Shown here piece after piece: positions 1,193 to 1,443 of a stretch of 1,840 bases of DNA. The translations under genes and the position numbers were made by a program. The notes beneath the pieces were generated by a model. That model did no database searches, was not told where the DNA came from, and saw nothing but the letters and a program-made list of their open reading frames with translations. This DNA is from Escherichia coli (GTDB lineage: Bacteria > Pseudomonadota > Gammaproteobacteria > Enterobacterales > Enterobacteriaceae). The stretch is taken from the NCBI RefSeq assembly GCF_003334255.1, contig NZ_QOWU01000146.1. One strand, given 5' to 3'. The stretch's first letter is position 1, and each line of letters opens with the position of its first letter.

Positions 1193-1443
1193 TTATCGGT
1201 TTTGGCTACGCAGCATAGTACAAAACGGACAGGTGCATCCCGGGACGGGGGAGGCGTCACATGTCCCTGTGATGGTTGTTTCGGGTAATGCACTGTGTGG
1301 GGCATAAAAATGTCCGATAATTTTACTTTCTACCGCAGTTAGTTGATTCGTTGGTCCTGGTAGCACATTGGGCGAGGATTTAAATGCCAGGCAACTGAAG
1401 GATGATGTTGCAAGGGAGATAGCGAGAATATTTCTGATTTTCA
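1193..1443 (-). CDS. Small secreted cysteine-rich protein, 83 aa precursor
   Basis: Minus-strand ATG at 1441-1443 (GAGG about 10 nt upstream); stop is the complement of 1193-1195. N-terminus MKIRNILAISLATSSFSCLA looks like a Sec signal peptide with a likely cleavage after CLA. The mature part ends in a four-cysteine cluster, TGTCDASPVPGCTCPFCTM. Rare codons are present (AGA, CTA, TTA, GGA, CGA). The ORF-track start at 1513 adds 23 residues ahead of the signal peptide and is disfavoured. Confidence 0.55.

Follow-up and report, generated by a model that had tools for sequence, protein, structure and literature searches.

A four-cysteine small-protein gene next to cos in a phage 21-like prophage of Escherichia coli, with chromosomal relatives predicted to be under Zur control

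We analysed a 1840-bp stretch of Escherichia coli DNA (contig NZ_QOWU01000146.1; hereafter the window) that forms the right end of a lambdoid prophage and is 100% identical to E. coli chromosomes. Between the lysis genes (Rz) and cos, on the strand opposite to the late genes, it contains an open reading frame (ORF) for a small protein with four conserved cysteines, which we call the Cys4 gene. The ORF occupies positions 1193–1444 of the minus strand, with the stop codon TAA at 1193–1195 and the ATG as the complement of 1442–1444, and encodes a precursor of 83 amino acids (aa), MKIRNILAISLATSSFSCLAFKSSPNVLPGPTNQLTAVESKIIGHFYAPHSALPETTITGTCDASPVPGCTCPFCTMLRSQNR. A preliminary description had placed an ORF at 1193–1443; the ORF exists, but its end had been set one base short, as the ATG reaches 1444. 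The longest reading of the frame in the ORF list runs over 1193..1513 and gives 106 aa, and some GenBank records use this start. We rejected it, since the homologues all start at the equivalent of its M24 and the occasional N-terminal extensions in database entries are dissimilar to each other. The internal ATG at 1442–1444 is the start backed by the family, and the 83-aa extent is based on the ORF list, on homologues of equal length and on the ratio of non-synonymous to synonymous substitution rates (dN/dS). Nine nucleotides before this ATG, the sequence contains a Shine-Dalgarno motif, GAGG (1454..1457, minus strand), and the start context ATCATCA(A/G)ATG is common to the window, Klebsiella and Salmonella copies.

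Sequence comparison indicates that the Cys4 gene is a real gene, which evolves as a protein under purifying selection. The length of the ORF by itself is within chance, because the whole window contains 22 ORFs of at least 30 aa; it is the conservation at the protein level that makes it more than a chance ORF. In a search of 5.8 billion proteins, we found full-length relatives of 82–84 aa with 55–72% identity in Salmonella, Klebsiella and Citrobacter. Overall, there are 22 close homologues and 31 representative homologues, the latter being the matches of a profile search of 1.84 billion representatives, with named matches from Klebsiella, Enterobacter, Serratia, Pantoea and Salmonella. A profile search of genome contigs with one of the alignments (A2) gave five loci. 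Nearly all homologues have 79–86 aa, and the gene is therefore not the fragment of a longer gene that the preliminary description had considered as a refutation. To estimate selection, we used pairwise Nei–Gojobori comparisons of the window ORF with five divergent copies. The proportion of differing synonymous sites (pS) was 0.65–0.78, compared to a proportion of differing non-synonymous sites (pN) of 0.16–0.28; dN/dS was 0.10–0.27 where dS could be computed, with synonymous sites near saturation, and between clades pS was 0.47–0.86. Along the protein, pN is highest in residues 21–58 and lowest in the C-terminal block of residues 59–83, where pN is 0.04–0.16 and pS is 0.64–0.92. This combination of low pN and high pS points to a constraint on the amino acids, and not on an overlapping DNA element or an alternative frame.

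The gene is also widespread in a phage context. It is intact in 35 of 35 copies of a viral-contig collection, and among 5426 complete E. coli genomes we found the full-length ORF in 1223 at an identity of at least 95%. Thus, about one in five complete E. coli genomes, that of the uropathogen CFT073 included, carries a gene that annotation has overlooked. Two phage-borne E. coli clades, that of the window and that of a second prophage kind (L013), differ at 78% of synonymous sites and still share 72% protein identity and all cysteines; judged by this comparison, the gene is under long-term constraint within phage contexts. At a run of five C (C5 run) at ~1247–1251 (codons 65–66), four database variants (P0003, P0005, P0006 and P0023) are frameshifted into the frame of a downstream 59-aa ORF; these frameshifts could be sequencing errors, decay or slippage.

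Although GenBank already lists the exact protein as a 'hypothetical protein' and at least 1000 contigs carry close variants, RefSeq frequently has no annotation of the ORF. The NCBI annotation pipeline (PGAP) does not annotate it on an identical chromosome, nor does the curated phage 21 record, and in CFT073 the feature annotated under the ORF match is an opposite-strand call. The ORF has a GC content of 46.8% (42% at third codon positions). As the preliminary description had noted, rare codons are frequent: they account for 10 of the 83 codons (AGA, CTA twice, GGA three times, CCC three times and CGA). A set of eight rare codons makes up ~3.4% of E. coli K-12 codons compared to 12% in the ORF.

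Residues 1–20 (MKIRNILAISLATSSFSCLA; 1385..1444, minus strand) form a predicted Sec signal peptide, in agreement with the preliminary description. It has K2 and R4, a hydrophobic core (Kyte–Doolittle nine-residue means of 1.0–2.0 for segments starting at residues 1–9 and 11–13) and a predicted signal peptidase I cut at A20/F21. The assignment is based on hydropathy and on A20 and F21, both invariant in 26 sequences. The cleavage junction is C18-L-A20/F21 here and A-x-A/F in distant homologues (for example A-L-A/F-Q, A-M-A/F-Q and A-W-A/F-Q), with Cys at the -3 residue in the clade of the window and Ala, Ser or Val in distant members. The sequence S-S-F-S-C18 fits the loose PROSITE rule for lipoproteins. 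We rejected a lipoprotein, as the distant homologues have Ala, Ser or Val at this position yet keep A/F; a lipobox [LVI][ASTVI][GAS]C with an invariant +1 Cys was not found, the window sequence being S-F-S-C18. The alignments thus suggest a signal peptidase I site with C18 at position -3 and Phe21 as the first residue of the mature peptide.

The predicted mature peptide (1196..1384, minus strand) has 63 aa, ~6.7 kDa and an isoelectric point of 7.9. It consists of a variable N-terminal half with a predicted helix and a conserved C-terminal block, which contains the four cysteines as C62-x7-C70-x-C72-x2-C75 (CDASPVPGCTCPFC; 1220..1261, minus strand). The preliminary description had given the same C-x7-C-x-C-x2-C pattern as the end of the protein, though eight residues follow the last Cys. 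The family motif is G-x-C-x3-P-x2-G-C-x-C-x2-C-x2-L-R. Invariant residues are A20, F21, C62, G69, C70, C72 and C75 in 26 sequences down to ~25% identity, and F1 and the four cysteines in 38 mature sequences. Missing conservation of the cysteines, which had been listed as a possible refutation, was not observed: all four are invariant in alignments A2, A3 and A5. Separately, two long asparagine-rich, eukaryote-like proteins (P0042 and P0044) contain 4–5 repeats of P-[IL]-P-G-C-N-C-P-K-C-T-x-L-R-N, which correspond to the C-terminal mini-motif of the peptide family minus the first cysteine. The resemblance is at the level of the motif and may be a convergence on a small Cys knuckle.

The protein does not belong to a named family in the collections that we searched, as had been suspected: the 83-aa sequence is unmatched in Pfam, NCBIfam, PHROGs, PADLOC and the PDB sequences. 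In Pfam, there was no match for the window protein at E <= 10, none for any of 15 members at E <= 0.1, and none for the 15-member alignment; a PDB sequence profile search gave no match for the 83-aa protein. The literature search, whose coverage omits most subscription journals, returned nothing on the peptide family. In an AlphaFold model with low predicted local distance difference test (pLDDT) values, the variable half contains a helix, and a second, short helix starts at C-P-F-C.

We further compared the peptide to four known classes of small or cysteine-containing proteins. It differs from the heat-stable enterotoxin (ST) family by the absence of a Pfam match and by four cysteines with other spacing, and from class II microcins and bacteriocins by a Sec-type leader without a GG/GA site. 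A thioredoxin-fold oxidoreductase might be considered from the C-P-F-C at a predicted helix start, but the peptide has only 63 aa and no Pfam, PDB or fold match. Compared to the bacterial metallothioneins SmtA/BmtA, it has no Pfam or PDB match and carries a signal peptide.

Across genomes, we found the gene in ~14 distinct contexts with no constant neighbour, so that it travels alone, and no exporter or immunity gene is constant across them. Many of the chromosomal neighbours have functions in metal homeostasis. In Klebsiella and Enterobacter, one side is occupied by an amidohydrolase (PyrC-like) gene with ALAD (HemB-like), or by hisI-like and cobW genes, and the other side by a convergent operon of aztD, a znuA-like gene and ABC-3; the AztD neighbour scores 459 bits against a cutoff of 400. 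The Pantoea copy lies in a cluster of genes for ThrRS-like, Hexapep (γ-CA-like), FolE2, DksA-paralogue, COG0523, Fur-family and CysRS-like proteins, which looks like a textbook-like set of zinc-independent paralogues. In one enterobacterial lineage the Cys4 gene is directly 3' of a COG0523 gene, in Serratia it is divergent from an SBP_bac_5 ABC importer, and in Citrobacter it is divergent from fecI-fecR and a TonB-dependent receptor gene. In Enterobacter, two Band_7 genes and a gene for a P1B ATPase of the CPC type (Zn/Cd-type) precede the Cys4 gene, which ends the series; the gap between the ATPase gene and the Cys4 gene is 61 bp long and contains no terminator.

The mobile and island copies have other neighbours. 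In E. coli, the gene is adjacent to cos in two kinds of lambdoid prophage, followed by the 59-aa ORF or a DUF3950 gene. In Salmonella (salamae, indica, arizonae and diarizonae), a pliG-like gene is followed by the Cys4 gene, bor and omptin, with genes for a SPATE autotransporter and NEL effectors next to them; this cluster spans 5454–6739 of locus L007 and recurs in L016, L026 and L027, with subspecies II, IIIa, IIIb and VI represented. On a 211-kb contig of Klebsiella quasipneumoniae that we read as a plasmid (CP024459.1), the gene adjoins a Fur-family regulator and a ZigA-like COG0523 GTPase. No metal genes were found around the copies on a 188-kb contig of K. variicola, also read as a plasmid (CP000965.1), and on a conjugative element of Salmonella diarizonae (TraG_N nearby).

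Two side observations concern these contexts. First, upstream of the K. quasipneumoniae copy (L003 ~5800–5870) there is a degenerate cos (…TTTTTCATAAACAGCGAAAACCCACATGGTCACCGCCCCATAAC…), which shows that this copy arrived within a phage right-end fragment. Second, the Enterobacter locus (L042 1–4261) is an operon of several Band_7 (SPFH) genes, a gene for a short P1B ATPase of the CPC type whose N-terminus is rich in His and Cys, and the Cys4 gene at the end. An equivalent Band_7 operon (L020 1–3635) is divergent from cobW, and the intergenic region between the two contains several Zur boxes. We know of no description of such a module, which would combine SPFH proteins and a P-type ATPase under Zur control.

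To search for zinc regulation, we scanned 250 nt upstream of the family gene with the proteobacterial 23-bp Zur box GAAATGTTATA-N-TATAACATTTC (Gilston et al. 2014, PMC4219657) and with its 15-bp core TGTTATAnTATAACA. The core is matched at 14 of 15 positions in L020 (at -89), in Buttiauxella noackiae (L028, at -36) and in two Klebsiella/Enterobacter-type loci (L031 and L034, at -107), and at 13 of 15 in Serratia (at -39). Buttiauxella warmboldiae, Citrobacter and Pantoea (L030, L010 and L045) have matches of 15–16 of 23 at ~-40, in which the half-site ATGTTAT is invariant and the flanks have diverged. Matches of at least 13/15 occur directly upstream in 4 of 13 contexts compared to 0.6% of random 250-nt windows of the same loci (binomial P ~1e-6), and shuffled sequence gives 0.038 such matches per 10 kb. 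As a positive control, the Zur consensus recovers sites before cobW in L020. In Salmonella, all island copies have a Zur box (14–15/15) ~50 nt before the pliG homologue, and the Cys4 gene follows 95 bp after that homologue with no promoter-like or terminator-like site between them. In E. coli, pliG is an experimentally proven Zur target (PMC4219657). From the upstream boxes and the linkage to pliG in Salmonella, we predict that the chromosomal family members are genes of the Zur regulon.

The promoter region of the window copy has a different element. By eye, we found a candidate sigma-70 promoter on the minus strand (1512..1541), with a -35 TTACAG at 1536–1541, an 18-nt spacer and a -10 TATTAT at 1512–1517; it is absent from the listing of a simple promoter scan and must be weak. 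An alternative extended -10, TGcTATTAT, was also read by eye at 1497–1505 of the same strand. The Fur box consensus is GATAATGATAATCATTATC, or TGATAATnATTATCA in its 7-1-7 form. A palindrome at 1543..1557, which abuts the candidate -35, matches the 7-1-7 form at 13 of 15 positions, a score reached in 0 of 500 shuffles. The same place is occupied by a Fur-type palindrome in other lambdoid phages, with 15/15 in lambda (TGATAATCATTATCA; L019 2553–2567), K-12 DLP12 (L049 3595–3609) and L013 (5866–5880); the window and phage 21 have 13/15. It is found within a few bases of cosQ in all lambdoid right ends that we examined, with or without a Cys4 gene; in lambda and DLP12 it precedes a leftward DUF3950/ylcI gene. 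Our comparison thus also reveals a palindrome conserved from lambda to phage 21 that is seemingly unannotated, as neither the lambda nor the phage 21 record lists it. Since it occurs beside cosQ also where there is no Cys4 gene, it may serve packaging rather than regulation. From its position, the palindrome may be the operator of a conserved leftward cos-proximal unit that received the Cys4 gene, or a packaging-related element. We consider Fur control of the window copy itself possible but less likely than not.

The remainder of the window agrees with a phage right end. Positions 202–1592 align with the right end of phage 21 at 98.6% identity, and the phage 21 record stops at window position 1592. 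The end of Rz/Rz1 is found at 1–191, cosQ (GGGTCCT) at 1563–1569 as annotated in the phage 21 record, a lambda-type cohesive end GGGCGGCGACCT at 1593–1604 as read from the sequence, and a Nu1-type small terminase gene starts at 1788. No remnant of the Cys4 gene was detected in lambda by tblastn. The position of the gene, its strand, its absence from lambda and its composition all correspond to a moron, and its promoter has a weak consensus match. The horizontal acquisition proposed in the preliminary description is in line with a gene that has atypical codons and is carried by a prophage. Our best reading of the locus is that the Cys4 gene would be a lysogenic-conversion ('moron') cargo gene of a phage 21-like prophage.

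Two neighbours are located between Rz and the Cys4 gene. At 503–829 of the plus strand lies a gene for a lipoprotein of 108 aa that consists almost entirely of a TonB C-terminal domain (lipobox LAVGC; TIGR01352 with 47 bits, cutoff 27), and its PHROG label, 'Rz-like spanin', seems mistaken. Next to the Cys4 ORF, this is another cargo gene with a metal-uptake theme, and a TonB-domain lipoprotein could conceivably interfere with TonB-dependent receptors, phages or colicins. The second neighbour is the 59-aa ORF (952..1131, minus strand; phrog_4843, annotated by PGAP), which begins 61 nt after the stop of the Cys4 ORF, has a strong ribosome-binding site and is possibly its operon partner; we found no divergent homologues of it. 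Its strand is disputed: PGAP (strain G1/2) and PHROGs call the minus strand with 59 aa, whereas a plus-strand ORF of ~60 aa is called in the phage 21 record and, by PGAP, in CFT073, and two plus-strand ORFs (1013–1183 and 1036–1173) lie opposite to it. A GC-rich hairpin with a 12-bp stem (921..946; folding z = -2.2) separates the TonB-domain gene from the leftward ORFs convergent with it. On the plus strand a T-rich tract comes next, so that the hairpin may be a bidirectional terminator.

Taken together, we tentatively propose, with confidence slightly short of even, that the peptide is exported and cut after A20, that its four cysteines form a metal site, likely for zinc, in the envelope, and that the family had an ancestral role in zinc starvation, with the phage copy as cargo. 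The metal binding is suggested by the predicted membership of the chromosomal relatives in the Zur regulon, and the metal site more specifically by the regulation, the neighbourhood and the knuckle-like C-x-C-P-x-C at a helix start. In the proposed mechanism, a promoter of its own would drive leftward transcription of the window gene, opposite to the late operon. The precursor would be exported by Sec and cleaved by signal peptidase I after Ala20, which would free a 63-aa periplasmic peptide that is possibly released further. Activity would reside in the conserved Cys4 block at the C-terminus, in which C-P-F-C begins the short predicted helix, and the four thiolates would bind a metal ion, most likely Zn(II). 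The peptide might then help to capture, buffer or hand over envelope zinc under metal scarcity, as in the host. The family is confined to Enterobacterales and would work as a single gene. Phages, plasmids and islands have presumably acquired copies of it, from which the Zur box was lost. Phage copies adjacent to cos, which lie behind the Fur-type palindrome, may answer iron limitation instead.

Several points weigh against this proposal. Periplasmic cysteines are usually oxidised by DsbA, which favours disulfides over a thiolate metal site, and known periplasmic zinc proteins mostly use His, Asp or Glu ligands; two disulfides in sequential pairing (C62–C70 and C72–C75) are equally plausible as a metal site. 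The structural models have low confidence, with a pLDDT of 48 for the full precursor (15 sequences) and 61 for the mature peptide (38 sequences), and a Foldseek search of these models against the PDB gave no fold match. In the 250 nt upstream of the window copy there is no Zur box, the best match to the core being 9/15 (p = 0.98), and the Fur-type palindrome is degenerate here and also present beside cosQ in lambda and DLP12, neither of which has a Cys4 gene. The recent and shallow E. coli phage clade has 5 non-synonymous and 2 synonymous polymorphisms, a ratio that is no evidence of constraint, and some database entries, a minority, carry a frameshift at the C5 run. Finally, we infer transcription, translation, export and metal binding alike from sequence.

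A stronger version of the proposal goes beyond a metal site. The peptide would be a new component of the zinc-starvation response, a ribosomally made, Sec-exported 63-aa tetrathiolate peptide that acts with importers of the ZnuA/AztCD type or with Zn-type P1B ATPases to scavenge or relay Zn(II) in the envelope; lambdoid phages would have captured it and rewired it from Zur to Fur, and lysogens would gain an advantage in metal acquisition within the host. We regard this version as speculative and on balance unlikely. If the zinc link is true, the Zur regulon of Klebsiella, Enterobacter, Salmonella and relatives would gain a very small exported protein of a new type. The phage copies would then be an instance of phages that carry a metal-acquisition factor, with relevance to nutritional immunity and to the benefit of prophages for host fitness.

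Among the alternatives, the one that survives best reads the same regulation differently. The peptide could be a disulfide-knotted periplasmic protective factor, an inhibitor of or decoy for a host antimicrobial effector, for which metal limitation is a cue of the host, as for PliG. The Salmonella gene is apparently co-transcribed with the pliG homologue and followed by bor and omptin, all of them genes of envelope defence; in phage 21 and CFT073 the gene is near bor/iss; DsbA is generally expected to oxidise four exported cysteines; and the family has spread on phages, plasmids and virulence islands. Yet most chromosomal contexts contain genes for zinc transport or zinc sparing and not for defence, there are members in the plant and environmental genera Pantoea, Serratia and Buttiauxella, and the peptide has no similarity to the Ivy, MliC, PliC and PliG families. 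We consider a protective factor unlikely.

Less likely still, and in our view improbable, is that the gene is a silent or decaying passenger in the E. coli prophage lineage, cut from ancestral Zur control, while the family is functional elsewhere. The missing Zur box, the weak promoter match, the near-neutral polymorphism, the frameshift variants, the enriched rare codons and the frequent absence of a RefSeq call would all be expected from such a passenger. They contrast with the complete set of intact viral-contig copies and the many genomes with a full-length ORF, with the retention of the protein and all its cysteines between the window and L013 despite the strong synonymous divergence, and with the conserved Shine-Dalgarno and start context.

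The preliminary description had considered toxins, bacteriocin-like peptides and signalling molecules. The variable middle would then be a pro-region, from which the conserved, Cys-rich C-terminal 25 residues are released to the outside of the cell as in heat-stable enterotoxins. The layout of signal peptide, variable region and conserved Cys-rich C-terminus is indeed ST-like, the distribution of pN (highest in 21–58, lowest in 59–83) follows it, and the gene is carried on mobile elements. Nevertheless, Pfam gave no match to enterotoxin or bacteriocin families, there is neither an ST nor a microcin match nor a double-glycine leader, none of the ~14 contexts has a linked immunity, processing or export gene, the family occurs in Zur-controlled housekeeping-type loci of non-pathogens, and the invariant mature N-terminus F21 suggests that the whole 63-aa peptide is the product. 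We therefore regard a toxin or signal as very improbable. The idea that the conservation stems from a cos-near DNA or RNA element or from an overlapping alternative frame (a 117-aa ORF at 952–1305), which could appeal to the proximity of cos, the overlap at 1193–1305 and the opposite-strand calls of other pipelines nearby, can practically be dismissed, as homologues in chromosomes and plasmids are nowhere near a cos site, the amino acids are kept although synonymous sites are saturated (which effectively refutes it), Rfam has no match anywhere in the window, and the alternative frame occurs in protein sets only as frameshift fusions.

When comparing the tentatively preferred metal-site peptide to known systems, we find partial similarities in several directions. 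Rubredoxin-type knuckles and the N-terminal cluster of SmtA (C-x-C-x2-C) are cytoplasmic metal-binding Cys motifs. The C-x-C-x-x-C/C-P-x-C of the peptide, with the second pair at the N-terminus of a predicted helix, resembles them at the level of the motif only, with no detectable homology. Precursors of STa and STb have ~70–80 aa, a Sec signal peptide, a variable middle and a conserved Cys-rich C-terminus, and are encoded on mobile elements. Their layout is similar to that of the Cys4 precursor, whereas the number and spacing of cysteines differ, and the homologues of the Cys4 gene are found in zinc-homeostasis loci of non-pathogens.

As phage cargo, the gene is most similar to the morons bor/iss, lom and stx1, with which it shares the class of location from lysis genes to cos, next to bor. 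Like these, it would be read independently of, or against, late transcription, is absent from related phages and atypical in composition, and has a predicted envelope or exported product. It differs from them in having no sequence relation and in encoding a soluble 63-aa peptide instead of a lipoprotein, an outer-membrane barrel or an AB5 toxin. The promoter of stx1 is Fur-regulated and iron-responsive, which is a precedent for an upstream Fur-type operator. For mobile cargo in a zinc-starvation response, the VSP-II island of Vibrio cholerae is a precedent, as its horizontally acquired genes are under Zur (PMC8248653). VSP-II differs in its proteins and its organism, and the mobile Cys4 copies seem to have lost rather than gained a Zur box.

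Lastly, ZinT, AztD, ZnuA and PliG are the closest parallels on the side of zinc. The chromosomal Cys4 homologues share with them a Zur box and a neighbourhood of aztD/znuA-like, COG0523 and pliG genes, and the peptide is likewise predicted to be Sec-exported and encoded by a single accessory gene. It is far smaller than these proteins, has no homology or fold match to them and carries four Cys in place of His/Asp/Glu, and the window copy has no Zur box. What is new here is the set of near-consensus Zur boxes and zinc-starvation neighbours of the chromosomal relatives of a small gene carried by a phage.

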